A stretch of DNA of 64,000 nt from an uncultured Gammaproteobacteria bacterium. GTDB taxonomy: Bacteria; Patescibacteriota; Patescibacteriia; SG8-24. Numbering within the stretch: the first letter of the stretch is position 1; every line of letters starts with the position of its first letter. Below are positions 3,106-62,136 of this stretch, piece after piece. The DNA is taken from NCBI GenBank assembly GCA_964491475.1, contig CAZBFO010000004.1:3290-67289 (forward strand), written 5' to 3'. A model generated the notes under the pieces. That model saw only the letters and a program-made list of their open reading frames with translations. It ran no database searches and had not been told where the DNA came from. The position numbers and the translations under genes were made by a program.

Positions 3106-3129
3106 CCGGCGCTTTGCGCCGGTTTTTTA
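3106..3129 (+). terminator. rho-independent terminator
   Basis: stem ccggcgc / gcgccgg, 3-nt loop, then TTTTTTA; immediately after stop of 2480..3100. Confidence 0.5.
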
Positions 3130-5576: not shown

Positions 5577-5578
5577 GG

Positions 5579-6010: not shown

Positions 6011-6117
6011 GATGTTCTCCTTGTGACGCGGCGCATCCCTCCTTGATGAGGAAAGCTGCCGGACACGAGAAGCTACCAAGAAAAGGCGCTTCCGTCAAGA
6101 CCCGCAGGACCGCAACG

Positions 6118-6495
6118 TCAGAAATGTCGCGGCGGCGCATGGCGCGCAGGCGGCACATGCCTGCGTGACGGCGGCGAGTAATGGTGGCGATGATGCCACG
6201 GCGGCGGATAGCCATGGCGATACCCCCAGGTAATGCCCGGCCGATGCACGTAGACGCCGCCGGTGTAGACGTAGTAGCCGTAGTACGGACCGGTCACCCA
6301 ACGGCAGTTCGGGTACCAGATGCCGTCGGCCCAGCAGCCGCCGTCGGGGTAGGTGTAGACGTAGCCGGGCGTGACCACGTAGACCGGGCGCGGCGGTTCC
6401 GGTTCGACCACGATGCTCGAGGTTTCCGAGACGAGGCAGCCGGCCGAAAGCACGGCCAAAGCCGCAAAAAGGAGTACTGGCGAAAGGCTTCTCAT
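6118..6495 (-). CDS. small Tyr/Gly/Pro/His-rich lipoprotein
   Basis: MRSLSPVLLFAALAVLSAGC lipobox; mature part is low-complexity (YVVTPGYVYTYPDGG..., GPYYGYYVYTGGVYVH, HHRHHY); GGAGG SD 8 nt upstream of ATG. Confidence 0.5.
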   Translation of the reverse strand: MRSLSPVLLFAALAVLSAGCLVSETSSIVVEPEPPRPVYVVTPGYVYTYPDGGCWADGIWYPNCRWVTGPYYGYYVYTGGVYVHRPGITWGYRHGYPPPWHHRHHYSPPSRRHVPPARHAPPRHF

Positions 6496-6555
6496 GAAAA
6501 CGCCTCCGCAACCACCGTACAGGTTTTTGGGGGAAAAGCAATCCTGCCGGCATAC

Positions 6556-6583
6556 GAAAAATGACCGCGCCGTTCGCGGTCAT
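6556..6583 (-). terminator. rho-independent terminator
   Basis: 9-bp stem atgaccgcg / cgcggtcat, loop ccgtt, minus-strand U-run; directly after stop of 6585..7304. Confidence 0.45.
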
Positions 6584-6584
6584 C

Positions 6585-7304
6585 TTATCGTTCGTCCTCC
6601 CAGGTCATGCCCTGTTCGACGCTGAAGTCCTCGTGGTCGCAGGTCTCGTCGCTGGTGACCTCGCGGCGCACCACGCGGATGTGCCGCTGGCTGACGATGG
6701 GCGTCATGATCATCACCTCGGGGGTGAAGAAGGTCTTGGGCAGCCTGGCCGGCGCGTTCGACTTGGCCAGCCAGTGCGTGCCTTCGGGAAGATCGACGCG
6801 ACGATAGTGCGCCTTGAAGTCCTTGAGCGGGACGATGCTGTCCCAATACTTTTGGAAGGCGCCGCGGTAGCGGTCGAGCCCCGTCTGGTTGGCACCGATG
6901 AACGGAATCAGCGCGGAGATGAAGTCCATGTCGCCGACGTAGGCCTCTTCCGGATCGATCTGCAGTTCAAGAATGTAGCGCTCGCGGCGGAACGGGAAGC
7001 GCGGCGTCTCGTCGGTGGGCGTGGCGTAGACCGCACCGAGGCGGCTGACGCCGCGATCGACCAGCCGCTTGGGCCGGTGCCGGTCGAGCAGTTCCATTTC
7101 GGCGCGCATGTCGGGGTGGCGGGTTTCGGCGGGAGGGACCGACAAACCCTCGCGGATGATGCGCATGACCTCGTCGAGAGAGCATTCGCGATAGACCGAA
7201 ACGTAGTGCTTCGGCACGTCGGCAAGGCCGGTACCGAGCATGACGCTCCAGTCGATGGTCGCGCCATCGTAGGCGCTATACAAGCCGTCGGCTCGTTGTC
7301 CCAT
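6585..7304 (-). CDS. hypothetical protein (co-transcribed with leuS)
   Basis: 239-aa ORF beginning 8 nt downstream of leuS stop; no motif I can assign. Confidence 0.5.
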   Translation of the reverse strand: MGQRADGLYSAYDGATIDWSVMLGTGLADVPKHYVSVYRECSLDEVMRIIREGLSVPPAETRHPDMRAEMELLDRHRPKRLVDRGVSRLGAVYATPTDETPRFPFRRERYILELQIDPEEAYVGDMDFISALIPFIGANQTGLDRYRGAFQKYWDSIVPLKDFKAHYRRVDLPEGTHWLAKSNAPARLPKTFFTPEVMIMTPIVSQRHIRVVRREVTSDETCDHEDFSVEQGMTWEDER

Positions 7305-7312
7305 AGATGCTT

Positions 7313-9718
<2,406 letters not shown>

Positions 9719-17987: not shown

Positions 17988-19511
17988 CTAGTTCGCCAGG
18001 AAGATCGTCTTGAGCGCGTCGTACACGGGCTTCTTGCTGCCGTCGTAACGGTACATGCCGAAGAAGTTTTCGGTAGTGACCGTCGAGGTGCCCAAGTCGG
18101 TGTAGGTGTGCCAGAAGAATCCCCCGATCAGCGGGTCGGCCAAGGACAGCGACAGCGCCTCCCTGCCGATGGCCGCCTGCAGGTCCTCGCTCACGTGATC
18201 CGGGCTGTTGGCAAGGTTGTAGTCGGCGGTCGTGGCGAGCGCGCCGGGACCGTTCGTCGGAGCGCCGACCTCGGTGATCCAGATCTTCTTGGTGCCGTCG
18301 CCGTTGCCGTTCATGATGCTGCGGAGGCTGACGCTGGTACTTGACATCTGCTGCCAGGCGTTCCATTCGGCTTTATACGAAGGGAGCACCGGGAACGAGT
18401 ACGGGTGGAAGGCGACTGCATCCATCGAGGGACCGACGCCCAAGGCGTAGGCCTGGGACAGGAAGTCGCGCGGCGAAACGTCGCCGTTGCCGGTCGCGGC
18501 CGGGGCCAGACCGCCGAGCAGCACGGTTGCCGAAGGGTCGCTCTTGCGAACCGCCGGCGCCGCCAGCTTCAGCAGGGCGACGTAATCGGCGACCGCCGAA
18601 GGCGACTGCCAGAAGACGTGCACGTTCTCCTCGTTCCAAATCTCATAGGCGTGCACGCCCATCGGGGCGTAGCGAGCCGCGGCAGTGCCGGCGAATGTGG
18701 CGAACGCGGCAGGATCAGCGGGAGCGCAGCGCGGTGCCGTGCAACCCGATGCGCGAGCCCAAGCCGGCGAGTAGGCCACGACGGCCAACGGCTTCAAACC
18801 ATGCGCGATCGCGGCTTTCACGAAGGTGTCAGGGCCGGTCCAGCTGAAGGAGGCGCTGCTGGTCTGCTGCACTTCGCTCCAGTCGATGTCGAAGCGCACC
18901 CAGGTGACGCCCATCGAGACCATGTCGTTGAGGCGGTTGTTCATCTCGGTGCTCGACAGTCCCATCATGGTCGTGCCGACGGCCATGCCGAAAGGATGCG
19001 TCGAAGCGCTGGAGGCGACCAGCGTGCCGCTGATGGGAGCGGTGCCGGTGCCCGAACCGGAGGTCGGCGCCGTGTTCGTGTTGGTCGGGACGGTATTGGT
19101 ATTGGTCGGCGCCGTGTTGGCGTTGACGACGACCGTGTTGGCGTTTGCGGGAGAAGTATTCGTATTGGTCGGCGCGGGAGAGGGCGTGATCGGAGCGGTA
19201 ACGGGAGAAGTGGCGGGCTTGCGGTAACGCGTACGGGCGTATGTTGCGGCGCGCAGCACCTCTTCCTCGCTGGTGTCGAGGCCGTTCAGCCTGTCCGCCA
19301 GCTTTTTCAGCGCGGACACTTCGGTAGGAACCGCAGCCACGCTCTGGACGCGCGGCAGATCGGATACATCGGGCAGCTCGGGTGCGCGCACCGCCTGCTG
19401 AAGAAGGACGGCCACGGCCGCAATGGTAAAAAGGGCCACTAAACCGTATGCAGCCCCGTTGCGCCATCGCGTGTTGTCCGACGAACGTCGCTCTTGTGGT
19501 GTGTTTGGCAT
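17988..19511 (-). CDS. membrane-anchored glycoside hydrolase, GH5/GH39-like (PslG-like endoglycanase candidate)
   Basis: trimmed to MPNTPQERR...; N-terminal TM AAYGLVALFTIAAVAVLL; Thr/Asn/Pro repeat stalk; (beta/alpha)8 hydrolase motifs ...HAYEIWNEEN... (acid/base Glu) and ...IWITEVG... (nucleophile Glu). Confidence 0.7.
   Translation of the reverse strand: MPNTPQERRSSDNTRWRNGAAYGLVALFTIAAVAVLLQQAVRAPELPDVSDLPRVQSVAAVPTEVSALKKLADRLNGLDTSEEEVLRAATYARTRYRKPATSPVTAPITPSPAPTNTNTSPANANTVVVNANTAPTNTNTVPTNTNTAPTSGSGTGTAPISGTLVASSASTHPFGMAVGTTMMGLSSTEMNNRLNDMVSMGVTWVRFDIDWSEVQQTSSASFSWTGPDTFVKAAIAHGLKPLAVVAYSPAWARASGCTAPRCAPADPAAFATFAGTAAARYAPMGVHAYEIWNEENVHVFWQSPSAVADYVALLKLAAPAVRKSDPSATVLLGGLAPAATGNGDVSPRDFLSQAYALGVGPSMDAVAFHPYSFPVLPSYKAEWNAWQQMSSTSVSLRSIMNGNGDGTKKIWITEVGAPTNGPGALATTADYNLANSPDHVSEDLQAAIGREALSLSLADPLIGGFFWHTYTDLGTSTVTTENFFGMYRYDGSKKPVYDALKTIFLAN
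19062..19175 (-). repeat. in-frame tandem repeat encoding PTNTNT/ANANT linker
   Basis: DNA shows repeated gtgttggt/gtattggt units; translates to PAPTNTNTSPANANTVVVNANTAPTNTNTVPTNTNTAPT within the GH5-like protein. Confidence 0.7.
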
Positions 19512-25461: not shown

Positions 25462-27731
25462 TCGGAAATGAGCGCTCGGTACTGCGCCACCTGCGCGGCC
25501 ATGCCGTACTTGGTGCGGGCCTTGCGGACGCCGTTGGCGGCGAGATGCCGGGCAAAGGGCTCGTCGCTCAACACGCGGCGAATGGCGGCGGCAAGCGCGG
25601 ACTCGTCGCCGGGAGTCACCAGCAGGCCGTCTTCGCCGTCGGCGATGACCTGCGGGATGCCGCCGACGTTCGAACCGATGACCGGGCGGCCGCTGGCCAT
25701 GGCCTCGATGAGAACGATGCCGAACGCTTCGGCGCCCGTGAGCGACGGCAGCGTCAACGCGCTGCTGCGGCGGTACGCCCGCACCAGTTCGTCGCCGAGC
25801 ATCGGACCGGAAAAGATGACGTTCCGCTCGATGCCGAGATCCTTGGCCATGGCACGATAGCGCGGCACGGCGTCTCCGCCGCCGACCAATTCCAATTTGG
25901 CGTCGGGAATCGACCGCGCGACGAGCTTCATGGCGCGAAGCAGCGCCGCAATCCCCTTCCAGGAAGAGGTCTCCTCGATGCGGCCCACGAACAGCACCGT
26001 CTTGCTGCCGGACGGCAGCGGGGTAGCGGCGAAACGTTCATCATCCACGGAGGGAGGGATGTCGTGCACCTTGGCGCGGAACTCCGGAAAGGCGCTCTCG
26101 AAATATTTGGTCGAAATGGCGACGATCGCCCGCGCCTTCTTGAACAGCAGGCGCAGCACGTACTGTTCGTACGCCCAAATCACGGCATCGATCGGGTAGC
26201 GGCCCTTGCGCATGCTGCCGGCGTGATACGTCACCAAGACGGGCGTCTGGCCTGCGGCCATGGCAGCCACGTCGGCGATGAAGGGCACCGGGGAGTGCGC
26301 GTGAACGAGTTGCGGCTTGGCGAATCGGAAGAGCTTGCGCAGCCAGAAGTACCACATCGGATTGACCGGCGTGTTCGACACGCGGAAGGCCGTCGGCAGA
26401 CGGTGCACGGTCATGCCGTCGATGACGTCCTGGCGGTAACCGGCGCCGTCGTGATTGCTGGTAATCACGCTGACGTCGCAGTCGCCGGATCGCTGCAGCC
26501 GGCGGGAAAGCTCGTAGGAGTAATTCTCGAGGCCTCCGATCTTCGGGTAGAAGTACGGAACGACCACGGCAATGCGCGTTTTGCCCGGAACCCCTTCCGG
26601 AAGGGCGCCGCGCAAAAACGCCTCGTACGCCGCGGCGCGCGATTCCCACATGTAGGCGGCGCCGATCTTGGCGCGTCCGGCGGCTCCCATCGCGGCGGCC
26701 AGGGCGTCGTCCTTGAGCAACCGCGTTATCCGTGCGGCAAAGGCGGGCGCGTCTCCCGGAGCGCAGGTGAAACCGTTTACGCCGTCCTCCACCAGACCGC
26801 TGCCGATTTTGCCGCAGACCACGGGCAGCCCGCAGCTCATTGCCTCGAGCACCACCATCGAGAAGCTGTCGTTGTGCGTCGGCAGGCAGAACACGCGTGA
26901 CTCCTGATATGCGCGCACCAATGCGGCCCCTTCGGCCTTGCCGTAAAAACGCACGGCCCCCGCAAGACCGAGCAGGCGTATTCGCTCCTCATGTTCCGAA
27001 CGCATGTCGCCGTCTCCGACCACCAGCAGGCGTGCCGCAGGAATCTCGGCGGCCACCGGCACGAAGGCGTCGATCAGCGTTTGCAGGCCCTTGTGCTGTT
27101 CCGAACGTCCCAAGCCGCCCACGAACAGCACCGTCGGTTCGGGTTTCCGGCTGCCGGCCGCAGGAACGAAAACGGAACCGTCGACGGCGGGCGTGACGGT
27201 CGTGCTCTTGTACCTGTAGGCGCGCAAAAAGTCGTTGCGCACGGCATCCGACGAGCAGATAATGCGGTCGGCGCGGCGCAGCAGCAGGGGCAGGAGCACT
27301 TTTTCGTATGCCCAAATGACCGGATCGACCCAGCGGTTGCCCTTGCGCATGCTCAAGCCGTGATAGGTCACGACGACCGGCGTCTTGCCGGCGACGAGCG
27401 AGGCGATGTCACCGATGCCGGGGACGGGCATGTGCACGTTGATGACGGCAGGGCGAAGTTCCCGGATGATGCGCCTGATCTTGAACGGCCACAGGAACGC
27501 AAAAGGCATGTTCGACCATTTACAGGCGTAGGCCAGCTTATGCACGGTGATGCCGTCGACCGCGGCGATCTCGTCCTTGCCGAAACGGGCGCCGGATGTG
27601 ACAAAGGTGACCTTCCAACCATGCGTTGCCCGCAGCCGCTTGGCCATTGCCAGGGCATAACGCTCCAACCCTCCGCCGTTCGGCGGAAAGTAAGGCGTGA
27701 CGAACAGGATGTTCGTTTGTTCCTGGCGCAT
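25449..27731 (-). CDS. tandem double GT4 glycosyltransferase
   Basis: two complete GT-B/GT4 units (…VLFVGGLGRSEQHKGL…SMVVLEAMSCGLPVV… and …VLFVGRIEETSSWKGI…GIVLIEAMASGRPVIGSNVGGIP…). Confidence 0.8.
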   Translation of the reverse strand: MRQEQTNILFVTPYFPPNGGGLERYALAMAKRLRATHGWKVTFVTSGARFGKDEIAAVDGITVHKLAYACKWSNMPFAFLWPFKIRRIIRELRPAVINVHMPVPGIGDIASLVAGKTPVVVTYHGLSMRKGNRWVDPVIWAYEKVLLPLLLRRADRIICSSDAVRNDFLRAYRYKSTTVTPAVDGSVFVPAAGSRKPEPTVLFVGGLGRSEQHKGLQTLIDAFVPVAAEIPAARLLVVGDGDMRSEHEERIRLLGLAGAVRFYGKAEGAALVRAYQESRVFCLPTHNDSFSMVVLEAMSCGLPVVCGKIGSGLVEDGVNGFTCAPGDAPAFAARITRLLKDDALAAAMGAAGRAKIGAAYMWESRAAAYEAFLRGALPEGVPGKTRIAVVVPYFYPKIGGLENYSYELSRRLQRSGDCDVSVITSNHDGAGYRQDVIDGMTVHRLPTAFRVSNTPVNPMWYFWLRKLFRFAKPQLVHAHSPVPFIADVAAMAAGQTPVLVTYHAGSMRKGRYPIDAVIWAYEQYVLRLLFKKARAIVAISTKYFESAFPEFRAKVHDIPPSVDDERFAATPLPSGSKTVLFVGRIEETSSWKGIAALLRAMKLVARSIPDAKLELVGGGDAVPRYRAMAKDLGIERNVIFSGPMLGDELVRAYRRSSALTLPSLTGAEAFGIVLIEAMASGRPVIGSNVGGIPQVIADGEDGLLVTPGDESALAAAIRRVLSDEPFARHLAANGVRKARTKYGMAAQVAQYRALISDCLS

Positions 27732-44965: not shown

Positions 44966-46045
44966 TTACTTGTTCTTGCCATTGGAGCTGGTGGCGCCTT
45001 CGTTCAGCACGTAATGCTCGGCCACTTCGGCCTCGACGATGCCGTTCTTCACCAAGTGGTCCAAATCCTGCTCAAAGGTGGTCATGCCCTTGCCGGCAGA
45101 AGTCTGCAGCACGTTCACGATCTGGGCCGCCTTGTTTTCGCGGATGAGGTTGGCGACCGCAGAATTGTTGACCAGGATTTCGCGGGCAGCGACGCGACCG
45201 CCGCCGATCTTGGGGAGCAGCTGCTGCGAAATGACGCCGCGGAGCGTCAGTGCCAGCTGGGTGCGGATCTGGTTCTGCTGGTGCGACGGGAAGGCGTCGA
45301 TGAGGCGATTGATGGTCTGCGAGGCGCTGTAGGTGTGCAGCGTGGCGAACACCAAGTGGCCGGTCTCGGCGATGGTCAGGGTGGTGGCGATGGTATCCAT
45401 GTCGCGCATTTCGCCGACCATGACGACGTCGGGGTCCTGGCGCAGGATGTGCTTCAAGGCGTCCGGGAAGGAGATGAAGTCCTGTCCGAACTGGCGCTGG
45501 CGAATGACGGCCTTCTTGGCCTCGAAGATGAACTCGATCGGGTCTTCGAGCGTGATGATGTTGACCGGCTCGCGCATGTTGATGGCGTTGACCATCGAGG
45601 CGAGAGCGGTTGACTTGCCGGAACCGGTCGGACCGGTGACCAGCACCAGGCCGTGCGGAAACTCGGTCATCGCCTGGGCGCTCGGAGGCAGGCCCAGCGA
45701 GCTCATGCTTGGAATGTCGGACGGGATGGTGCGTGCGGCCATGGCCACGTTGCGCCGCTCCCAGTGCACGTTGATGCGAAAGCGCTTGCCTGTCGGAATC
45801 TGATAGGCCACGTCGAGCTCCTTCTGCTCCATGAACACCCGCTTTTCCTGTTCGGTAATGAAGGAGAACACCAGCTCCTCGACGTTCTGGTTGGTGAGCG
45901 CCTTGGCGCCCTCGATGGGCACCAAGTCGCCATTAAGGCGGAGCAGCGGCGGGCGGCCGACCACAAGATGAATGTCGGACGCCCCCTTGGCGACCGCAAT
46001 CTCAAACAAAGTGTTCATCACGTCGAGCGGTGTGCTTGCTGCCAT
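44966..46045 (-). CDS. pilT: type IV pilus retraction ATPase PilT
   Basis: 359 aa; Walker A GPTGSGKST, Asp box, Walker B DVVMVGEMRD, His box TLHT, PilT-specific AIRNLIRE-like motif (AVANLIRENK). Confidence 0.9.
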   Translation of the reverse strand: MAASTPLDVMNTLFEIAVAKGASDIHLVVGRPPLLRLNGDLVPIEGAKALTNQNVEELVFSFITEQEKRVFMEQKELDVAYQIPTGKRFRINVHWERRNVAMAARTIPSDIPSMSSLGLPPSAQAMTEFPHGLVLVTGPTGSGKSTALASMVNAINMREPVNIITLEDPIEFIFEAKKAVIRQRQFGQDFISFPDALKHILRQDPDVVMVGEMRDMDTIATTLTIAETGHLVFATLHTYSASQTINRLIDAFPSHQQNQIRTQLALTLRGVISQQLLPKIGGGRVAAREILVNNSAVANLIRENKAAQIVNVLQTSAGKGMTTFEQDLDHLVKNGIVEAEVAEHYVLNEGATSSNGKNK

Positions 46046-52315: not shown

Positions 52316-54808
52316 TTAGACCAGAGTGGCGTTCGCAACTCCGTCCTTGTCCTCCTTGAAGCGCATGATGCGCACGCCCTGCGTGTCGCGCCCGAGCACG
52401 GGCACCTGGGCGATCGGCATGCGGATCATCTGGCCCTTCGAGGAGACGGCGAGCAGGTCGCGTTCCTCCTTGGAATTGACCACCATGCCCATGACGATGG
52501 TGCCGGTCTTGTCGGTCACGTGGGCAGTCTTGATGCCGGAGCCGCCGCGACCCTGGACCTTGTACTGCTCCAGGCCGGTGCGCTTGCCGAAGCCATTCTC
52601 CATGATGATCATCAGCTCGAAGCCGCTCTTCTTTCCGTCGTCCGGTGAAACGACGTCCATGCCCACGACCTTGTCGCGGTTCTTGAGCTTGATGCCGCGC
52701 ACTCCTGCTGCAGCGCGTCCCATGGGGCGCACGTCCTTCTCGGAGAAGCGGATGGACTGGCCCTCGGCGGTGACCACCGAGACTTCTTCCTTGCCGTTGG
52801 TTGGCTTGACCCACTCCAGCAGGTCGTCGCCGTTCAGCTTGATGGCGATCAGGCCGCTGCGGCGCACGTTCTTGAAGTCCTCCAGCGGGGTCTTCTTCAC
52901 GTTGCCCTTGGTGGTGGCCATCATCAGGAACTTGGAGTCCGGCATCTCGTCCGAAGACAGCACTGCCGAGACCTTCTCGCCCGGGGCGAGCTGCAGGAAG
53001 TTCACCATGGCCTGGCCCTTGGAAGTGCGGGAGCCGGCCGGCACGTCGTAGGCCTTCAGCTGGAAGACGCGGCCCTTGGAGGTGAAGAACAGCAGGTCGG
53101 CGTGGGTGTTGGTCGAGAACAGGTGCTCCACGGCGTCCTCTTCCTTGGTCTTCACTCCCGCGACGCCCTTGCCGCCGCGCTCCTGCGTGCGGAAGGTGTC
53201 CGGCGGCAGGCGCTTGATGTAGCCGTCGGCGGTGATGAGCACGATGGTCGGCTCGTTCGGAATCAAATCCTCCGTGGAGAACTGGCCGACGGCGCCGGCG
53301 ACGATCTGGGTGCGGCGGTCCTGGCCGTACTTTTCCTTGAGGCCGGTGACTTCGGTCTTCACGATGCCCAGGATCTTCTTGGGCGACTTGAGAATGGCCT
53401 CGAGCTCGGCGATCAGCGCCTTCACGGCCTTATACTCGTCCTCGATCTTCTTGCGCTCAAGGTTGGCGAGCTGCTGCAGGCGCATGTCCAAGATGGCCTG
53501 GGCCTGGATCTCGGACAGCTTGAACTTCTTGATGAGGTTGAGCTTGGCGTCGTCCTTGTCGGCAGAGGCGCGGATGGTCTTGATGACGGCGTCGAGATTG
53601 TCGAGCGCGATCTTCAGGCCTTCCAAGACGTGGGCGCGGGCCTTGGCCTTGGCGAGGTCGAACTCGGTGCGCTTGCGCACGATCACCTGGCGGTGCGAGA
53701 CGTACTGCTCCAGCGCGCTCTTGAGGTTCAGTACGCGCGGCTGCAAGCCGTCGACCAGCGCCAGCAGGTTCACGTGGTAGGTGTCCTGCAGCTGCGAGTG
53801 GTGGAACAGGGCGTTCAGCACCTTCTTGGGATAAGCATCGCGCTTCAGTTCGATGACGATGCGCACGCCTTCCTTGTTGGACTCGTCGCGCAGGTCGCGG
53901 ATGCCGTCGATCTTCTTGTCGTTGACCAGCTGGGCGATCTTCTCGAGCAGCGCGGCCTTGTTCACCTGGTACGGCACCTCCGTCACCACGATGTTGAACT
54001 GGCCGTTCTTGGTCTCGACGATTTCGGTCTTGGCGCGCATGACGATGCCGCCGCGGCCGGTGGCGTACGCCTGGGCGATGGCCCGCTTGTCGTAAATGAT
54101 GCCTCCGGTCGGGAAGTCCGGACCTTTCACGAACTCGGTGAGGTCGGGAACGGAACAGTCCGGGTTGTCGATGAGGTGGTTGATGGCGTCGACCAGCTCG
54201 TTGAGGTTGTGCGGCGGGATCTTGGTGGCCATGCCGACGGCGATGCCGTCGGAGCCGTTCAAAAGCAGGTTCGGCAGGTTGGCCGGCAGGACGCTCGGCT
54301 CCTTGTGGGTGCCGTCGTAGTTGGGGATCCAGGGCACCGTCTCCTTCTCGATGTCCGCCATCATGTTCTCCGAAATGGACTCGAGCTTGCACTCGGTGTA
54401 ACGCATGGCGGCCGCGCTGTCGCCGTCCATCGAACCGAAGTTACCTTGGCCGAGCACCAGCGGGTAGCGCATGTTGAAGTCCTGCGCCATGCGGACCAAG
54501 GTGTCGTAAATGGCGGCGTCGCCGTGCGGATGGTACTTGCCCATCACTTCGCCGACGACAGTGGCGGACTTGCGGAACTTGGCGGTGTACTTGAGGCCCG
54601 TGTTCCACATCGCGAAAAGCACGCGGCGGTGCACCGGCTTGAGGCCGTCGCGGGCGTCAGGAAGCGCACGCCCGATGATCACGGACATGGCGTAGTCCAA
54701 GTATGATTCCTGCACTTCGTCGCTGATGTTTCGCGCTATGACCTTGTTGGCGGGTTCATCGATAGGGAGGAGCGGCTGGTTCTTGCCGCCGGTGCTTTTG
54801 CTAGGCAT
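52316..54808 (-). CDS. gyrA: DNA gyrase subunit A
   Basis: 830 aa; catalytic region …AAAMRYTE… (active-site Tyr), GyrA-box QRRGGKG-like (QERGGKG), C-terminal beta-pinwheel repeats. Confidence 0.95.
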
Positions 54809-54826
54809 GTCTTTCCGGGTCAGCGG

Positions 54827-55219
54827 TTAGGGAGTTGCGGGAGCATTCACTTTCGTATCGGGGGAGCCGGTGGACGCGTTGGCATTCAGGCCGCTGTTGA
54901 TCTTGGCGCGGAGCTCTTCGATGTTGATGGCGTTGCTGGCGTTGGTGTTGCCGGCCTCCAGCTGGTTGCGAGCCACGGCATTAAGCCGTTCGCGCTGTCT
55001 CTGCAGCAGCTCGACGAACGACTGCGACGAGTCCTGGCCGTCGGCCTTGCGCTCCGATATCCAACGGGACAGCGAAGCATCGCCGGAAGAATCGGCCTTG
55101 AACTTGGCCAGCTGGTGCGGCAGCACGAAGGCCCACAGCGCCACGATGATTGCCGTCGTGCCCCCCACGGAGGCCCACAGTACCAAACGTTTCTTGTGAT
55201 AGTCGTCGAGCTGCGGCAT
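54827..55219 (-). CDS. membrane-anchored hypothetical protein
   Basis: 130 aa; one TM (LVLWASVGGTTAIIVALWAFVL); immediately upstream of gyrA. Confidence 0.45.
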   Translation of the reverse strand: MPQLDDYHKKRLVLWASVGGTTAIIVALWAFVLPHQLAKFKADSSGDASLSRWISERKADGQDSSQSFVELLQRQRERLNAVARNQLEAGNTNASNAINIEELRAKINSGLNANASTGSPDTKVNAPATP

Positions 55220-55230
55220 AGGCGTACTGA

Positions 55231-55884
55231 TTATTGCGGTTCAAGGGTGATGACCTTGGTCTCTTCCTGCGGAAGGTCCTTCTTGGAAATCTTCAGTTTG
55301 GGCAGCGCCTCGATCTTTCCCGTACCCATGGCCTTGAGGAAGGCATCGACTGTTTCCAGCTTGCCGCCCGCGCCGCCGACGCCGTAGTGCATCGGAATGA
55401 TGATGCGAGGTTCGAGCTGGGCCACGACCTCCGCGGCCTGCTTGCCGTTCAGCACGTCGCCGCCGCCCACCGGCACGAACAGGATGTCTACAGAATGGAA
55501 CTCCTCGAGGTGCTTTTCTTCCAACGCATGCTTCAGGTCGCCCAGGTGCACCACGTGGATGTCGCCGATGGTGACGTAGTACATCGTGTTGGTCCCCTTC
55601 TCCTTGCCCTCGACGCTGTCGTGGTAGGTGGAGATGCCCGTGACGAAGGCGTCCTTCACTTCGAATTCGCCGGGACCGCTGATGATGAACGGATTGCCGC
55701 CGACCGCCTCGACGTTGTTGTGGCGGTCATGTTCGTGGCTGACAATGACCAGGTCACCCGTCAGGTTCCGCGGGAGCTTGAAGCCGTCCTGATTGGTGAA
55801 AGGGTCGATGACCACGGAAACCTCGTGGCCGTTGATCGTCTCGGAGATGCGGAAGCAGGAAAAACCGTGCCAGGTGATAAGCAT
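55231..55884 (-). CDS. MBL-fold metal-dependent hydrolase (UPF0173-like)
   Basis: MLITWHGFSCFRI…, HEHDRHN metal-binding His cluster, later …HLGD…, …PMHYG…. Confidence 0.7.
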   Translation of the reverse strand: MLITWHGFSCFRISETINGHEVSVVIDPFTNQDGFKLPRNLTGDLVIVSHEHDRHNNVEAVGGNPFIISGPGEFEVKDAFVTGISTYHDSVEGKEKGTNTMYYVTIGDIHVVHLGDLKHALEEKHLEEFHSVDILFVPVGGGDVLNGKQAAEVVAQLEPRIIIPMHYGVGGAGGKLETVDAFLKAMGTGKIEALPKLKISKKDLPQEETKVITLEPQ

Positions 55885-55998
55885 AAGGTCGAGAAGTTCA
55901 GTGCGCGTTTCGCTGCCAGCGTAACACGCGCGGCACCAAAAGTGAAGCCGTGCAGGTACGAAAAACCGCTCGCGTCAAGGGCGGGCGGTCTTCGATTT

Positions 55999-56724
55999 TC
56001 AGGCTTTCAAAAAGGACGCCAGCGTTCCCTTCCAGTACTCCGTTTCCTGCTCCAGATCGTCCAAATCGGTGTCATTGCCCACCACCGACCAGCCCTCTTC
56101 TATGGTGCGGATGCGCTCCTTGATTTCGGGCTCCCATTTGGCGCTGACGCCGGCCAACCGGCGCAATTCGTCGATTTGCGCGGCTATCTTCTCCTGCCTG
56201 TCGGCATATTGCTTGACCAGCAGCTTGTACTCGTCGCGCTTTTGGGTCGTCACCAGCTGTTCGATCTCCGCGCGGGCGTAGTCACGGGCGATGAACAGCG
56301 CCTGCTCTATGGCCGCAATCTCCTTGGGTTCGAAAAAGCGTTCGAACGGCGATTTTTGCCGCTGCTCGTCTTCGGACTTCACCTTGGGAATGTAGCCGAT
56401 CTTGCCGCCCTCGTGGATGAACCGCTCGTATTTTTGCTTCAGCTCCCCTTCCAGGTTCTCGAGCAAAAACGCCTCTTCGGACGAGTGTCCGTAACGCGCG
56501 TACACGTCTTCGTAGGCCTTGCGGTACGCCCAAGAGTCCTTGCCCAAAGAAACGATAGTCTTCTGAATCTCAAGGTACTTGGTACCCGGCTTCTCCAGGA
56601 ACTGCTGCAGCTTCTTTTCGTAGGCGCGGCGCTTTTCCTTGGAAAAGGTCGGCGGCAAATGCGAGACTGCCAGACGGAGCAGCTCCAGGGTGTAGGTGTA
56701 GGGGTGGAGGGTGGGTTTGGGCAT
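55999..56724 (-). CDS. hypothetical protein (predicted coiled-coil)
   Basis: trimmed to MPKPTLHPYTYTL…; 241 aa, Lys/Glu-rich helical; no motif assigned. Confidence 0.45.
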   Translation of the reverse strand: MPKPTLHPYTYTLELLRLAVSHLPPTFSKEKRRAYEKKLQQFLEKPGTKYLEIQKTIVSLGKDSWAYRKAYEDVYARYGHSSEEAFLLENLEGELKQKYERFIHEGGKIGYIPKVKSEDEQRQKSPFERFFEPKEIAAIEQALFIARDYARAEIEQLVTTQKRDEYKLLVKQYADRQEKIAAQIDELRRLAGVSAKWEPEIKERIRTIEEGWSVVGNDTDLDDLEQETEYWKGTLASFLKA

Positions 56725-56859
56725 AGGCTGACCCCAGTATAACAACAAACGGTCCGGTCCGCACTTGCTCACGAATGCGTATTGATTTTTCCGGCCCCTT
56801 CGTGTTTTCATTGTTGTCGGTCCGCAATAACGCTCCTTACATGAAGAAAGAGGAAACGA

Positions 56860-57879
56860 ATGAGCAAATCCGCTGAACATTTGGCGCGAGAGAAGGAGAG
56901 GATAAACGCGCTGATGCGCGAAGAACGGGAACGAGGCGAGATGTTTTGGCGGTATCGCCATACGCTGCGCGTCGGCGATCCCGTGCTGGTGCGCGGAGAA
57001 GATCCGTGGTCCAGATGCAGTCCAGACCATAAGGCCAAACGGTATCCCGTCGGCAGCCCCGGCGTAATCGTGGGCTTCGCCGTCAGGTCCGTGTGCCGCC
57101 TTAATACGTCGGCCAAGACCAAGCCCGGCATCTACGTCGACCAAGAATGGCCGTTCGTCCGTCTGGCCGGCGCGTCCGACATCCGAAGAATCCGCGCGAA
57201 CCATCTTCAGCTTCTCTCGTACGACGCTGCGACGAGGCTTGAGCTGCAGAGGAAGGAGCACCCGGAACGCGCTCCTTTCCATGGTGATTTCATCTGCGAC
57301 CTGCCTGACACCGAGGTATGGGAGGGCGACATCGTCCGCCCGAAGCCGTGGTTGACGGACAAGGTCCCGGAAGAAGTGGCACGCGATTCGGTTCCCGGCT
57401 TGCCGGGCACCTTCGTCGTCAGTTGGATGAGCTTCGTGGAGCATCCCGGTGACGTTCACGAATCGCTCGGGGCCTCACCGCGATTCACCGTCAGCGACCG
57501 GTTCTTCCGAAAGGGGGGCGGCAGCTTTTACGACTTCCAGCTCGAAGTCGTCGAGCGCGGCAACCTCTGGCGGCGCGCCCACGGCCAACGCGAATCGTAT
57601 CGCGACCTGGAGGAGGAAGCCTTCTTCCTCTATCGCATGGGCGAGCTCGATCCGGCGCCGGAGCACTCCCCCAGCTTCCCCACCAGGGAAGAGGCGGTTG
57701 CCGCCGTCCGCATCGGGCCATGGCATGGCATTCGCTACTACGATGAATTCCTCGACTGGGGAAGCAGTACCGGATATACCGTGATCCGTTATCGCGATGA
57801 CGACACCGGTCGGCGAATCGCCGAAGCGACACTCACGTCCGGCTTCATGATTCCCGGCGATTGCGAACCGCCCGCTTGA
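56860..57879 (+). CDS. hypothetical protein
   Basis: 339 aa; AGAGGAAAcgaATG SD; no motif assigned. Confidence 0.45.
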   Translation: MSKSAEHLAREKERINALMREERERGEMFWRYRHTLRVGDPVLVRGEDPWSRCSPDHKAKRYPVGSPGVIVGFAVRSVCRLNTSAKTKPGIYVDQEWPFVRLAGASDIRRIRANHLQLLSYDAATRLELQRKEHPERAPFHGDFICDLPDTEVWEGDIVRPKPWLTDKVPEEVARDSVPGLPGTFVVSWMSFVEHPGDVHESLGASPRFTVSDRFFRKGGGSFYDFQLEVVERGNLWRRAHGQRESYRDLEEEAFFLYRMGELDPAPEHSPSFPTREEAVAAVRIGPWHGIRYYDEFLDWGSSTGYTVIRYRDDDTGRRIAEATLTSGFMIPGDCEPPA

Positions 57880-57884
57880 AACAC

Positions 57885-57915
57885 GCCTCCTTCGGCCGAC
57901 GAAGGAGGTTTTTCT
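57885..57915 (+). terminator. rho-independent terminator
   Basis: stem cctccttcg / cgaaggagg, loop gccga, then TTTTTC. Confidence 0.55.
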
Positions 57916-57924
57916 TTGCTGAAT

Positions 57925-57953
57925 TTCGTCACAGAGACGCCCCCTTGACCGCA
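57925..57953 (+). promoter_or_regulatory. candidate sigma70-like promoter of rpsA
   Basis: TTGACC - 17 nt - TATACT; ~115-nt leader. Confidence 0.45.
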
Positions 57954-58074
57954 ACCGCCATCTCCCCTATACTCCCACAGACTTTAATTCAGTCATTCTC
58001 GAGGCCTGTCTGTGGCTTCGGGAGCTCCATGGTCTGCTTATGCGGGCGACGGGGTTAAGCGATTTTTTTCGTAT

Positions 58075-59202
58075 ATGAGCACTAAAGAAAAGTTGAGGCT
58101 GGCCGATCTTCTTGAAGACAAGGCGTTCCTGATGATTCCCAAGCAGGGCGATGTGGTGAAGGGCAAGGTCATTTCCGTTTCCAAGAACGAGGTCCGCATC
58201 GATATCGAGAACTACCGCACCGGCGTGGTCCGCGGCCGCGAAATCGCCGACCCCTCGCGCGTCTTTGCCGACGTACAGGCCGGTGACTCCGTTGAGGCCA
58301 CCGTCGTCGACCTCGAAAACGAGGCGGGCGAAGTCGAACTGTCCTTCCGCTTTGCGGGTCACCGCAAGGCCTGGGACATGCTCCAGGACCTGTTCCGCTC
58401 GGGTGAAACCGTGGCCGTGAAGGTCCTCGAGGCTTCCAAGGGCGGCTTGCTGGTCAAGCTGAACCACATCTCGGGCTTCCTCCCCGTCTCGCAGCTCGCT
58501 CCGGACAACTACCCGCGCGTGGCCGGCGGCGACAAGTCCAAGATTCTCGAGAAGCTGAAGACCTTCACCGGAAAGTCGATGGACGTCCGCGTCATCGACG
58601 TCAACGAGGGCGAAGAGAAGCTCATCGTTTCCGAGAAGGCCGTCTGGGAAGACAAGCAGAAGAACGTCATTTCCAAGTTCAAGGTCGGTGACACCGTCGA
58701 AGGAGAAGTTTCCGCGCTCGCCGACTTCGGCGCGTTCGTGAAGTTCGACATCCTCGAGGGTCTCGTCCACATCTCGGAGATCGCCTGGCAGCGCATCGAC
58801 CACCCGCGCGACATCCTCAAGGTCGGCGACACGGTCAAGGCCGAAATCATCGGCATCGAGGGCTCCAAGATCTTCCTCTCCATGAAGAAGCTCGTCGAGG
58901 ACCCCTGGAAGCGCGTCGGCGACAAGTACAAGGTCGGCGAGAAGGTCATGGGCAAGGTCCTCAAGATCAACCCCTTCGGCTTCTTCGTCGAATTGGATCC
59001 GGAGATTCACGGCCTGGCCCACATTTCCGAGCTGTCCTCCAAGCCGGTCGCCGACCCGGGCGAAATCGCCAAGGCCGGCGAGACCCGCGAGTTCATGATC
59101 GTCTCCATCGAACCCGAACAGCACCGCCTCGGCCTCTCCATCAAGGCGCTCACCGAAAAGCCCGCCAAGAAGGAAGAGAAGAGCGAGGAAGCGGCGGCGT
59201 AA
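58075..59202 (+). CDS. rpsA: 30S ribosomal protein S1 (four S1 domains)
   Basis: trimmed to MSTKEKLRLADL…; four repeats of the S1 OB-fold (…GDVVKGKV…, …GETVAVKVLE…, …GDTVEGEVSALADFGAFVKF…, …GEKVMGKVLKINPFGFFVEL…). Confidence 0.85.
   Translation: MSTKEKLRLADLLEDKAFLMIPKQGDVVKGKVISVSKNEVRIDIENYRTGVVRGREIADPSRVFADVQAGDSVEATVVDLENEAGEVELSFRFAGHRKAWDMLQDLFRSGETVAVKVLEASKGGLLVKLNHISGFLPVSQLAPDNYPRVAGGDKSKILEKLKTFTGKSMDVRVIDVNEGEEKLIVSEKAVWEDKQKNVISKFKVGDTVEGEVSALADFGAFVKFDILEGLVHISEIAWQRIDHPRDILKVGDTVKAEIIGIEGSKIFLSMKKLVEDPWKRVGDKYKVGEKVMGKVLKINPFGFFVELDPEIHGLAHISELSSKPVADPGEIAKAGETREFMIVSIEPEQHRLGLSIKALTEKPAKKEEKSEEAAA
59146..59202 (+). repeat. direct repeat DR-L (3' end of rpsA)
   Basis: 57 nt gcgctcaccgaaaagcccgccaagaaggaagagaagagcgaggaagcggcggcgtaa; ~89% identical to 61234..61290. 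Confidence 0.7.
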
Positions 59203-59217
59203 CAGCCAACACAGTAC

Positions 59218-59247
59218 GAAAGCCCCGTCTGAGGACGGGGCTTTTTA
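59218..59247 (+). terminator. rho-independent terminator after rpsA
   Basis: stem agccccgtc / gacggggct, loop tgag, then TTTTT. Confidence 0.6.
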
Positions 59248-59370
59248 CTAACTTGATTACTGAGGAGATTTCCGAGCATCAACTGCGAGTCGAACGTGTT
59301 ACTGGTTTCGGCAGTATTTGTTATGCTTGCACCGAACTTAATCTTTAACGATAGACGTCACCATCTCCTT

Positions 59371-60174
59371 ATGAGCCAGTTCGATAATCCGCAAAGCCCT
59401 GAATACAGGGAAAACATGAAAATGCGGGTAGAGAGCGTCCGCAAGTCGGTTGAAGCGAACGCGGAGCGCGTTGCTTCGGCGGGCGAATGGCCAGCGCACA
59501 TCAAGCCCGGATCCCTGCTTGAACGTATTCCCAAGGAGGGGGAGAAAAACGCTCCCGGCTTTGATGCGGGCATAGCTGCAGCTCTCGACTTGATCCCAAA
59601 GGACAAGCAGGACCTGTCGGCGCATCTTCATGCGAACTACACCAAAGATGCGGTGCTCCGAGTGAGAAAAGAAATTGCGGAACTGGATCCAGATTCCCAG
59701 ACCGCATGGTGGCTGGCAGCCTGCGCCATTTGCAAAGAGGGTGACGTCGACACTGAACAGTTCTTGCGACAAATCGACGACTTCAAGAAGCTCGCCGCTG
59801 ATCCCCAGCTCCGGGAGCAGGCGGCTAAAAAAGAATATGAGCACATAACGAGCGCATTCACGATGAAGGATGGCGTTCCTTATGGTGAAAAGGACGGCAG
59901 CATACAGGGCGCATATATTGCCGGACATCCCTTCGGCTCGACGTACTCCGAAAAATACGGTCTCTATTTCGTGGGTACGTACGAGGACTCGCTCGGCCTT
60001 GAGGACTTCAAATGGTCGGATGAAAAGGACGAGAAGGGCAGGCCAAAAAGTGGACCAGTGTTCGGCAGCAAGCAGTTCGTAAAATGCGCCAGCGAGGAAG
60101 AGTGGAAACGCGTCATGGAAGTCGTCAAGGCCAAACTGCCTGACACCGAGGGGGAAGATTCGACCGTTAAATGA
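59371..60174 (+). CDS. hypothetical protein A of islet (shares AGH-[PL]-FG motif with B)
   Basis: 268 aa from ATG 59371 (alternative GTG 59296 would add a hydrophobic N-terminus); …GAYIAGHPFGSTYSEKYGLYFVG…. Confidence 0.45.
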   Translation: MSQFDNPQSPEYRENMKMRVESVRKSVEANAERVASAGEWPAHIKPGSLLERIPKEGEKNAPGFDAGIAAALDLIPKDKQDLSAHLHANYTKDAVLRVRKEIAELDPDSQTAWWLAACAICKEGDVDTEQFLRQIDDFKKLAADPQLREQAAKKEYEHITSAFTMKDGVPYGEKDGSIQGAYIAGHPFGSTYSEKYGLYFVGTYEDSLGLEDFKWSDEKDEKGRPKSGPVFGSKQFVKCASEEEWKRVMEVVKAKLPDTEGEDSTVK

Positions 60175-60181
60175 TTCTGCT

Positions 60182-61228
60182 ATGGGCGAAAGACCAGGGT
60201 ACGTTCCCGAAGAAGAAATGACGAAAATGCACGAGGATGCCCTTGAGGTGAATAAGGAGCTCGATGACGTTTTGGCCGAAGGAAAGTACGTGGAAGTACA
60301 GGAGACGGCCAACAAGATAATCAAAAAGCGCGATCTGGCTTCGTCATTTAGCAAAGAAATGGCGACAGCGCTTACGGGGCTGCCTGAAGGCAAGAAGCCG
60401 ACGATGGCCCTCAATGAGAAGGGCATCGCCAATATGTACATGGCGGGACATCTTTTCGGCAAGGATTTCACCATGGAGAACATCGCCAAATGCCTTGTCG
60501 AAGGCGAAGAGGTCACCGACAAGATGAAGCACGGTGCGGAGGGGTCGCGATATTTCAAAATCGACATCCCACATGGTGCCGGCCTGCCGGGCCGCTTTGT
60601 CGTCCCGCAGGAAAGCGGCACGCCCCTTGCGGAACACGTCGCTAACTGGAATCAAAATTGCGAATACAAGTTCAGGCACGGCAACCTTGCTCCCGTAATC
60701 AAGAAGAAGGACATTCCAGACTGGCTCATCGATTACGAGTCGACTTTTTACGTGATCGTCGAGAAGAACCAGCTGCCGGATGGCAAGCTGCAGGTTGCCG
60801 ACGGCCCGACAGAAAACGATCCTGAAGGAAGTTGGCTCATCTCGACGGTCCACTACGGCCAGCCTTCGCGAATCAAACCGCGACCCCCGCGAGAACCGAA
60901 GTGGGACGAATTGAAGAAAGATCCGGCAGCCTCGATGGATGCCGTCGTTGCCTACCTGAAGCAGCAAAGCAAGTACCAGCGGGACTATGACAACTGGAAC
61001 GACGAGCAGAAGAGGGTGGTCTTCGTCGATCTTGAAGCAGAAGGCGTCGGCCAAAGCAGCGTGAAAGATCGACCGAGGGCTGCCGAAAATGCAAGCGACA
61101 CGACTGCCGTACGCCTCGCCGAGATGGAGGGTGATAACGTTGCGTTGCGCAAAATGCTGATGGAAGCCCTGGGTGAAATCAAGCAGCTACGCGCAGATGT
61201 CAAGGGAATGAAGACAAGGCAAAAGTGA
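60182..61228 (+). CDS. hypothetical protein B of islet (paralogous N-terminal region, C-terminal coiled coil)
   Basis: 348 aa; …ANMYMAGHLFGKDFTMENIAKCLVEG…; C-terminal …LAEMEGDNVALRKMLMEALGEIKQLRADVKGMK. Confidence 0.45.
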   Translation: MGERPGYVPEEEMTKMHEDALEVNKELDDVLAEGKYVEVQETANKIIKKRDLASSFSKEMATALTGLPEGKKPTMALNEKGIANMYMAGHLFGKDFTMENIAKCLVEGEEVTDKMKHGAEGSRYFKIDIPHGAGLPGRFVVPQESGTPLAEHVANWNQNCEYKFRHGNLAPVIKKKDIPDWLIDYESTFYVIVEKNQLPDGKLQVADGPTENDPEGSWLISTVHYGQPSRIKPRPPREPKWDELKKDPAASMDAVVAYLKQQSKYQRDYDNWNDEQKRVVFVDLEAEGVGQSSVKDRPRAAENASDTTAVRLAEMEGDNVALRKMLMEALGEIKQLRADVKGMKTRQK

Positions 61229-61233
61229 GCGGT

Positions 61234-61290
61234 GTGCTCGACGAAAAGCCCGCCGAGAAGGAAGAGAAGGGCGAGGAAGCCGCGGCGTAA
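61234..61290 (+). repeat. direct repeat DR-R (degenerate copy of rpsA 3' end)
   Basis: gtgctcgacgaaaagcccgccgagaaggaagagaagggcgaggaagccgcggcgtaa; would encode …EKPAEKEEKGEEAAA* vs rpsA …EKPAKKEEKSEEAAA*. Confidence 0.7.
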
Positions 61291-61304
61291 ATCCGTAGCA
61301 AGCG

Positions 61305-61331
61305 AAAAGCCGCCCGATGAGGGCGGTTTTT
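61305..61331 (+). terminator. rho-independent terminator after DR-R
   Basis: stem ccgccc / gggcgg, loop gatga, then TTTTT. Confidence 0.55.
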
Positions 61332-61431
61332 CGTGTCCGCGAGTCTTCGGCCTCAACCCGACACCATTGACGCGTCCGCGTTTTTTGGTTACCGTTCCGG
61401 GTGGTCTTTCACTCGAAAGGAATAGGAAACA

Positions 61432-62136
61432 GTGGAATGGTTTGCAGCGATGCTGCTGACGTTCTGGCATGCCGCTGAGAGGCTTTCCGGACGGCTGCGA
61501 CGACAAGGGAGACGGATGCTCCCGGCCAAGGAGCCTCGCGTTCGCGTGTACTTGCCGCAAGCCTTCTTTGGCGGCCAACGCACGCGGACCGCTGTGCACG
61601 AGGCGGGTCACGCCGTGCTCGCATGGGAAGCGCGCTGCGTAATGGACGTCACGTCGGCGCAGATCGTCGCCGATGACGACGAACGGAGCGCCGGTCTGGT
61701 CAAATACCGTTCAAGGCTGCCGGTCATAGCGCGGGACAATTGGGAACAGGTTTCCATTTGCCTCGCGGGGCTCGCCGCAGAAGTGACGATGTACGGCTCT
61801 TGCCAGAAGGGCGGAGCCGAAGACGACATTCGAAGCGCCCGAGAACTCGTGGACGAGATTTACCAGGGCGAGCGCGGGTATTTCGGCAGTTCGGCCTGCC
61901 CCTGGAACGAGGAGGCGGACAAAGCTCCCTCCATCGCCGGGACGGTGTACGGAGACGACGAAAGGTCGCGCAAGAACGAGATCATCGATTCCTGCTATCG
62001 TCACGCGCTCGCCAAGATTCGCGAACATCGGCATCTGTTCGATGCCGTTGCCGCCGCGCTCGATCAAAAAGGGCGTTTGGACCAGGACGAACTTGCCACG
62101 CTTCTGGGCGAACGTCAGTGGTACCTCTTCCGCTGA
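61432..62136 (+). CDS. stand-alone FtsH-like M41 zinc-metallopeptidase domain protein (no AAA ATPase, no TM)
   Basis: HEXXH zinc site in TAVHEAGHAVLAWE (FtsH: TAYHEAGHA), downstream …GLAAEVTMYG… and third-ligand region …ARELVDE…; 234 aa. Confidence 0.55.
   Translation: MEWFAAMLLTFWHAAERLSGRLRRQGRRMLPAKEPRVRVYLPQAFFGGQRTRTAVHEAGHAVLAWEARCVMDVTSAQIVADDDERSAGLVKYRSRLPVIARDNWEQVSICLAGLAAEVTMYGSCQKGGAEDDIRSARELVDEIYQGERGYFGSSACPWNEEADKAPSIAGTVYGDDERSRKNEIIDSCYRHALAKIREHRHLFDAVAAALDQKGRLDQDELATLLGERQWYLFR

Follow-up and report, generated by a model that had tools for sequence, protein, structure and literature searches.

A low-GC gene pair behind rpsA in a Patescibacterium, flanked by imperfect duplications of the 3' end of the gene and lacking a recognizable recombinase

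The locus described here belongs to a 64,000-nt stretch (the window) of contig CAZBFO010000004.1 from an uncultured Patescibacterium and comprises the 3' end of the gene for ribosomal protein S1, rpsA, and a short islet of DNA behind it. The rpsA-like gene (58072–59202, + strand) encodes 376 residues that are matched by Pfam S1 in four stretches (E = 8e-48). It is the target gene and is intact through its stop codon; the protein ends in the peptide ...ALTEKPAKKEEKSEEAAA*. The left repeat (59146–59246, +) consists of the last 19 codons of rpsA including the stop (59146–59202), a spacer of 16–18 nt and terminator 1 (approximately 59218–59246). The right repeat (61234–61331, +) has the same composition: a non-coding relic of the rpsA tail (61234–61290), a spacer and terminator 2 (approximately 61302–61331). 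The DNA between the repeats starts with an AT-richer leader of 124 nt (59247–59370, +), followed by two open reading frames (ORFs), ORF1 (59371–60174, +; 267 residues) and ORF2 (60182–61228, +; 348 residues). A first-pass annotation made from the sequence had reported two ORFs here, and both are intact with starts backed by homologues. They fill the islet, leaving only the leader on the left side and 5 nt on the right, and the right repeat, which begins 5 nt past the ORF2 stop, is an orphan 3' fragment directly after the acquired genes. The resident downstream neighbour (61432–62136, +) encodes an M41-only metallopeptidase of 234 residues from a rare family (Pfam Peptidase_M41, HEAGH motif) with 52% amino acid identity to the product of a gene at 4614–5321 of contig L050, a relative discussed below.

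The repeat of the rpsA 3' end, given in the first-pass annotation as 57 nt of about 89% identity with a terminator after each copy, is present as described. The last 57 nt of rpsA recur at 61234–61290 with 51 of the 57 bases identical and a spacing of 2,088 nt, and the two terminators are strong hairpins with U-runs (−23.6 and −25.4 kcal/mol, z approximately −6). Local alignment extends the repeat to 59148–59246 and 61236–61331 (about 99 nt), including the spacer and terminator, with a score of 87 and z = 31.5 relative to composition-preserving shuffles. It is the sole direct repeat with more than 80% identity in the window, and a 38-nt degenerate pattern constructed from it has two matches in the window, as compared with none in 100 shuffles. 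The structure is identical in L036, an independent Logan assembly made from the same sample. The tail is compositionally simple, being made up of AAG, GAG and GAA codons, and a chance similarity of a Lys/Glu-rich coding tail next to two ordinary resident genes had been named as a condition under which the observation would collapse. That explanation is refuted by the shuffles and the alignment score, by the continuation of the resemblance into the spacer and terminator, and by eight relatives that lack the two genes at the site.

The copies differ in five codons, and four of these differences alter the amino acid (A/V, T/D, K/E and S/G), so the earlier description of the changes as silent and conservative does not hold. 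For A to V, K to E and S to G, the downstream copy has a state that is absent from the relatives, which fits a non-coding relic. This copy is out of frame with ORF2 and lies inside no ORF of 50 residues or more. The longest exact block common to both copies is 14 nt. Terminator 2 now closes the ORF1-ORF2 unit and insulates the next gene.

As the first-pass annotation had noted, the islet is lower in GC than its surroundings. The DNA between the repeats (59247–61233) has a GC content of 0.537 as compared with a window mean of 0.617, which places it 3.8 standard deviations below the mean (the standard deviation over 2-kb windows being 0.021) and makes it the lowest 2-kb stretch. GC at third codon positions (GC3) is also lower, at 0.63 in ORF1 and 0.67 in ORF2, whereas it is 0.71–0.87 in five flanking genes and 0.70–0.91 in most other ORFs of the window. 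The composition of the islet is foreign-like. No consensus sigma-70 promoter was detected in the islet leader, and the leader has no significant similarity to regions upstream of ORF1 homologues elsewhere. The Shine-Dalgarno sequences of ORF1 and ORF2 are weak, as had been claimed, but this is not a distinctive feature, since rpsA and pnuC are also without one.

Relatives of the host were located through the S1 protein, and one, L050, was located through the rare M41-only gene. The named homologues are from Patescibacteria (Parcubacteria, Magasanikbacteria and Uhrbacteria). Identity of the S1 protein to that of the window is 97% for L050, 95% for L007, 87% for L008 and L015, 84% for L009 and L023, 79% for L010 and 78% for L011. 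ORF1 and ORF2 are absent from the vicinity of rpsA in seven relatives (L007–L011, L015 and L023), and an exact-protein look-up of the window rpsA product, made for strain variants in other contexts, returned no record. In the six genomes where the downstream region is readable (L007, L008, L010, L012, L016 and L017), rpsA is followed by ftsH, a gene that is not in the window. Because of the rpsA-ftsH order in L007–L011, those genomes do not represent simple empty sites. The alignment of L007 with the window extends through 59246.

The closest relative found, L050, is a 6.2-kb Logan contig that aligns to window positions 54684–59202 with 82% nucleotide identity, including a homologue of a lineage-specific gene upstream of rpsA. 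Its gene order is the homologue of that upstream gene (up339), rpsA with one tail and one terminator, and an M41-like gene, with no islet. Positions 4474–4555 of L050, which cover the end of the tail, the spacer and the terminator, align to window 61253–61334 (77%, E = 6e-11, BLAST), and the L050 sequence past the rpsA stop has no BLAST alignment to the flank of the upstream copy. The empty-site comparison proposed in the first-pass annotation is therefore available in L050, where rpsA is directly followed by a terminator of the type at 61305 and then by the same downstream gene. The single repeat, the same neighbours and the missing islet indicate either an insertion in the window or a precise loss in L050 at the repeats.

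Other differences in gene order surround rpsA. From 59203 onward, in a comparison with L007–L021, there is a break in synteny between the relatives with the rpsA-ftsH order and the window and L050, in which rpsA is followed by the M41-only peptidase gene; in L051 and L052 the M41-only gene comes after a full-length ftsH. A PilT-like T2SSE ATPase gene (44966–46045, − strand) is the only gene that the window has in common with the stretch 4–6 kb downstream of rpsA in L008, L010, L011 and L023. It is inverted in the window, which indicates a rearrangement with a breakpoint near rpsA. Upstream, a 339-residue orphan gene (56860–57879, +), with a terminator at 57885–57909, is located between a divergent upstream gene and rpsA. 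It was found only in the window and in L050 (62% amino acid identity), is not at the same intergenic position in L007, L008, L009, L010, L011 or L015, and has neither family matches nor flanking repeats. In the region 57945–58071, an rpsA promoter-like site (TTGACC, 17 nt, TATACT) and a leader of about 100 nt both show nucleotide-level conservation in L007 and L050 and may represent a regulatory leader for that gene.

No integrase, transposase or tRNA was found at the site, in agreement with the first-pass annotation. ORF1 and ORF2 match no model in Pfam, PHROG, NCBIfam or PADLOC and have no resemblance to a recombinase fold; no transposase was found in the islet and no terminal inverted repeats at its ends. 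Both tRNA genes of the window are more than 14 kb from the islet. The ten other window genes that were tested (32.8–51.2 kb) include no integrase or recombinase, all being ordinary housekeeping genes, and no integrase turned up in related ORF1/ORF2 loci. The locus thus has direct repeats that span the target sequence and a single-copy, insert-free relative, L050, as in integrative elements, but no recombinase gene. A transposon or insertion sequence was considered and rejected, given that there is no transposase, that there are no inverted repeats and that the length of the duplication is not fixed (about 99 nt here, as compared with 170–260 nt at the L039 locus described below).

Beyond the lack of matches in these four collections, no relatives of solved structure were found for either protein by sequence, and a Pfam scan of every member of the ORF1 and ORF2 alignments gave only coiled-coil noise. 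The ORF1 family has at least 211 clusters at 46–70% identity, mostly from Patescibacteria, and is well conserved and without annotation. Its neighbourhoods are varied and include positions between a hibernation-factor gene and secA, after rpoBC, and beside lexA/imuB. A homologue with 50.6% amino acid identity is encoded on an 815-kb replicon of a cultured actinobacterium, Miltoncostaea oceani (NZ_CP064357.1, 278521–279246), and the ORF1 family is consequently not restricted to Patescibacteria. This homologue (L056) is annotated as a hypothetical protein and adjoins an HNH endonuclease gene. The AlphaFold2 model of ORF1 has a pLDDT (predicted local distance difference test) value of 94. It has no more than a weak fold resemblance to DHH/DHHA1 phosphoesterases (NrnA, RecJ and PAP phosphatase). 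An assignment of ORF1 to the DHH/DHHA1 phosphoesterases was rejected, as none of 48 family members has a Pfam match and the invariant residues are unlike the DHH motifs.

The ORF2 family is a very small orphan family, with 36 clusters, and has 12 representatives among 1.84 billion proteins, all of which are single-domain proteins without fusions. ORF2 has a strongly conserved alpha/beta core (approximately residues 75–290) and a C-terminal coiled coil; its invariant residues include H90, C104, H166, E194 and H224. No fold match to ORF2 was found in the PDB, and neither protein has a convincing match to any solved structure. The first-pass annotation regarded the two proteins as paralogues that share an N-terminal region with the motif AGH(P/L)FG. 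The motif in fact lies near residue 185, within the C-terminal half of ORF1, and its His is replaced by Tyr in most ORF1 homologues. Paralogy was rejected, since hhalign gives a probability of 0.2% (E = 0.31) and BLASTP aligns only a patch of 41 residues around AGHxFG, 13 of them identical (E = 0.005 in a single comparison).

There is likewise no evidence for the suggested role as a defence, toxin or phage-derived module. Neither protein has a PADLOC match that would indicate anti-phage defence. There is no PHROG match to indicate a phage origin; ORF2 is absent from IMG/VR, GenBank phages and BFVD structures, and ORF1 is absent from GenBank phages, its only occurrences among viral records being in two 'viral' contigs of 336–459 kb. 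A tblastn search of phages and plasmids gave no match except the ORF1 homologue on the Miltoncostaea replicon.

The two families form a recurrent pair, in which ORF2 is usually beside ORF1 or a remote ORF1 homologue. The two genes adjoin each other in the window, in L034 and in L039, and occur in reverse order in L035. In L003 and L041–L043, ORF2 is beside or close to a 251-residue protein that is a probable remote homologue of ORF1, judging from a profile alignment over 129 columns (hhalign 60%, E = 9e-5). In L045 and L047 the partner of ORF2 is an HD-domain protein. A phosphoesterase-type fold or domain in the partner is the only functional hint, and a weak one. The cargo is a pair of cytoplasmic proteins; as a working guess, an ORF1-like protein that has a phosphoesterase-like fold would act jointly with ORF2.

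The closest homologues of ORF1 and ORF2 (66–72% identical) are on contigs of 36–51% GC, with the exception of L001, whereas the host clade has 58–64% GC. L001, from the same sample (SRR12313479), is a 133,748-nt contig of 61% GC that encodes a second member of the ORF2 family (6001–7089; 72% amino acid identity). No ORF1 gene is beside it; genes for a 2H-type phosphoesterase, an M78 peptidase and an AAA_28 protein are nearby. This family member could represent a paralogue within the same genome or derive from a co-occurring relative. In another Patescibacteria metagenome-assembled genome, L035, a 2.9-kb island of low GC (4850–7750; 0.26–0.40 as compared with about 0.48) contains a short ORF2-like gene, a gene for 68 residues, an ORF1 homologue and a 3'-truncated gene for a TadA-like deaminase. 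The truncated deaminase gene was considered as a displaced fragment of a target gene and rejected, there being no second copy.

The closest ORF1-ORF2 pair is that of L039, in a block of four genes that encode an ORF1 homologue (68%), an ORF2 homologue (71%), a 265-residue ORF and a RadC-like JAB protein. This block is also flanked by an imperfect duplication (71–241 and 3544–3801), which is approximately 75% identical, includes an 81-nt indel and accounts for 170–260 nt. The right copy has stop codons and lies before a gene for an NYN-domain protein. The left copy is probably the in-frame end of an upstream membrane-protein gene together with promoter-like intergenic DNA; the contig ends within the upstream gene, and the reality of that gene is for that reason inferred. 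The non-coding ends of the window islet have nothing significant in common with those of L039 or of other ORF1/ORF2 blocks. Flanking duplications are absent from eight other loci (L034, L035, L003, L001, L037, L038, L047 and L054), and the signals are weak or ambiguous in L005 and L053. Since long direct repeats were common in the loci scanned, no enrichment of flanking duplications can be claimed.

Repeats of other kinds were observed at some of these loci. In L043, a block of NUDIX, ORF1-like and ORF2 genes is flanked by a GC-rich palindromic element of about 120 nt (88–214 and 3112–3234). Its copies share 94% identity over 127 nt and a virtually identical core of about 100 nt, the predicted fold has an energy of −51 kcal/mol, and partial copies are nearby. 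The element belongs to no Rfam family and looks like a repeat of the miniature inverted-repeat transposable element or repetitive extragenic palindromic type. L005 has families of intergenic repeats with ATGAAC-type motifs (4380–4480, 5452–5546 and 7093–7125) and a 39-nt promoter-plus-hairpin element that precedes both the ORF1 homologue and secA (5951–5989 and 7016–7054). The window itself has a tandem-like repeat with a 21-nt period at 19070–19196 and a 158-nt direct repeat of about 70% identity (26145–26302 and 27282–27439) that probably represents segments of paralogous genes.

The first-pass annotation interpreted the locus as an integration that regenerated the 3' end of rpsA. The observation is real and this main idea is largely right. 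The insertion with a duplicated gene end stands, whereas regeneration is one of three mechanisms that the data allow. The best explanation appears to be a Campbell-type crossover behind rpsA, to which we would give an even chance. Recombination in the last 57–100 nt of rpsA and its terminator would have brought about 2.0 kb of foreign DNA (59247–61233) into the chromosome right behind that gene. We infer that the incoming DNA was probably circularised and carried an rpsA-3'-like segment from a related lineage, and that this segment recombined with the resident rpsA tail by a single crossover inside the repeat to give two hybrid direct repeats. The catalyst would have been the recombination functions of the host or a recombinase provided in trans. 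As a result, rpsA would have retained its full C terminus and its own terminator 1, with a second tail and terminator placed 2,088 nt downstream; that tail would then be decaying as non-coding DNA, while terminator 2 would end the ORF1-ORF2 unit ahead of the M41 peptidase gene. The PilT-like ATPase encoded in the window is consistent with a type IV pilus and hence with a possible route of DNA uptake.

The hybrid nature of the repeats was evaluated by comparison of copy 1 (upstream) and copy 2 (downstream) with L050 and L007. The most similar pair of tails among the four is that of the two window copies (identity 0.89), followed by copy 1 with L007 (0.84), copy 2 with L007 (0.82), copy 1 with L050 (0.81) and copy 2 with L050 (0.74). 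For the spacer and terminator, the copy-1 flank is nearest to L007 (0.74) and farthest from L050 (0.57), and the two window flanks are less alike (0.63); the copy-2 flank has identities of 0.69 to L007 and 0.68 to L050. At the third codon of the repeat, copy 1 has ACC, as do L050, L009, L010 and L011, copy 2 has GAC, as does L008, and L007 has GAT. This pattern of tails and flanks, which would be expected if two diverged rpsA-3' segments had recombined once inside the tail to leave hybrid repeats, provides a hint of such an event. A precedent is the microcin H47 island of Escherichia coli, discussed below.

Several points weigh against the Campbell-type crossover. The hybrid signal is from flanks of about 45 nt and one codon and has a large sampling error, and the copy-2 flank is no nearer to L050 than to L007. 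When rpsA is compared with L050 and L007 in sliding windows, there is no clear switch and no donor-derived tract. Neither a donor genome in which ORF1-ORF2 follows rpsA nor a circular form was found. An exact block of 14 nt is short for RecA-dependent recombination unless the copies diverged later. L050 could equally be explained by secondary loss, most other ORF1/ORF2 loci (the eight listed above) have no flanking duplication, and the scanned loci contain long direct repeats not infrequently. The small numbers and the missing donor tract in rpsA are the reasons that we put the Campbell-type reading no higher than an even chance.

A duplication of the target in situ is an unlikely alternative. 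Foreign DNA without homology to rpsA would have been joined into a staggered break, or incorporated by replication template switching, with the duplication of about 100 nt, so that the resident tail and terminator came to be on both sides and the copies drifted apart afterwards. The segments of copy 1, copy 2, L050 and L007 are all homologous and the window tails are the most similar pair, which favours such an origin; each copy also keeps different L007-like characters, copy 2 in the spacer and copy 1 in the hairpin. The different lengths of the duplications at unrelated targets, about 99 nt here and 170–260 nt in L039, and the absence of conservation between the non-coding ends of the window islet and those of the L039 block are likewise in keeping with it. 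However, the window flanks, at 0.63, are less alike than those of copy 1 and L007 despite the similarity of the tails, the ACC/GAC difference of two bases at codon 3 corresponds to alleles segregating among the relatives, and a mechanism of this kind is undocumented for these bacteria. Quite unlikely, in our assessment, is homology-facilitated illegitimate recombination, in which linear DNA from a relative that already had rpsA, a terminator, ORF1 and ORF2 would have been anchored at its left end in rpsA and joined illegitimately at its right end 57 nt before the resident stop, displacing the resident tail. It would account for the 3' fragment 5 nt past the ORF2 stop and for the L007-like flank of copy 1, the PilT-like gene is in keeping with it, and the mechanism has been described in naturally transformable bacteria, with a documented displacement model (PMC5361080; PMC3240628). 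Nevertheless, the 3' part of rpsA shows no donor tract, copy 2 would be expected to be wholly resident and yet has an allele at codon 3 other than that of L050, and the required donor with the islet behind rpsA was not found.

The time of insertion is a separate matter, compatible with any of these mechanisms. It is rather unlikely that the islet predates the split between the window lineage and L050 and that L050 lost it by recombination between the repeats. L050 has exactly one repeat unit, the left part of which is like copy 1 (ACC at codon 3), and its flank aligns in BLAST only to the copy-2 flank (the global identity being a modest 0.68), a pattern expected from a deletion between the repeats. 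Divergence of the repeats is 10% in the tail and greater in the flank, and the event is accordingly not very recent. On the other hand, GC and GC3 of the islet are still far from the host values, and no other relative has the islet at this site. It is highly improbable that the islet is a decayed remnant of an integrase-bearing integrative element, with attL and attR as the repeats and the integrase and the rest of the element later deleted. Direct repeats with the 3' end of a protein gene, an unoccupied site and a foreign-like composition do fit the classical anatomy of att sites, but the two ORFs leave no space for pseudogenes, no related ORF1/ORF2 locus has an integrase, and the repeat is long and imperfect with an exact core of at most 14 nt. 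Very doubtful, too, is the idea that the pair of an ORF1-like protein and ORF2 is a new kind of mobile module in Patescibacteria that inserts downstream of genes without a known recombinase. One of the two orphan proteins might then supply the activity, and the target duplications would be long, variable in length and inclusive of the 3' end of the upstream gene. The duplication pattern is present at two independent targets, rpsA in the window and the probable membrane-protein gene in L039.

The locus can be compared with three known kinds of system. One kind is integrative elements at the 3' ends of protein genes, such as ICESt1 and ICESt3 at fda, and their integrase-less derivatives, the cis-mobilizable elements (CIMEs), which are stretches flanked by repeats and without a recombination module. 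Like the islet, they have direct repeats that hold the 3' end of the target gene, so that the gene stays intact; here, too, att-like direct repeats flank the insert and recombination genes are absent. The islet differs in that no related autonomous element or integrase is known for the site, no conserved element ends were found, and the repeat exceeds typical att cores in length and degeneracy. The term CIME is used in ICEberg 2.0 (PMC6323972) and in a review of integrative and mobilizable elements (PMC5704250). The microcin H47 island of Escherichia coli has extensive imperfect direct repeats and no recombinase genes, and it excises and integrates to leave hybrid sites (PMC3191183). It is similar to the islet in being small, with imperfect direct repeats and no integrase or excisionase genes of its own. 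Its mobility relies on host functions, as proposed for the islet. Unlike the islet, it is 13 kb in length, has a known cargo (microcin production), and has been shown experimentally to excise and integrate (PMC3191183); the islet is 2 kb in length, is located in a Patescibacterium, is known from sequence alone, and has as its repeat the 3' end of an essential ribosomal protein gene together with its terminator. In Rhs, contact-dependent inhibition and type VI secretion effector-immunity loci, C-terminal displacement is by homology-facilitated illegitimate recombination (PMC5361080). As in the displacement interpretation of the islet, homology-anchored DNA pushes a resident 3' piece downstream as an orphan and no element recombinase is needed, and the orphan rpsA fragment at 61234–61290 is right after the acquired DNA. 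Those are polymorphic toxin genes in which new 3' ends change the protein, whereas the gene here is rpsA, the protein end is essentially unchanged and the displaced piece is 19 codons. The locus is of a known kind, either an integrase-less island with imperfect repeats or a 3'-end displacement, in an unusual host and with uncharacterised cargo.

Patescibacteria (the candidate phyla radiation) have very small genomes. To our knowledge, few mobile elements have been described in them and their gain of genes is poorly documented. The locus provides a clean case, with a before-or-after comparison, of a gene pair added beside the essential rpsA, which is undisturbed, without an integrase. In addition, it draws attention to two families without annotation that recur as a pair and move between genomes. 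That this architecture recurs in L039, at an unrelated target but with the same pair of genes, could raise the importance of the finding, and if flanking duplications prove to be a regular signature of the pair, they would point to a route of insertion that has not yet been described.

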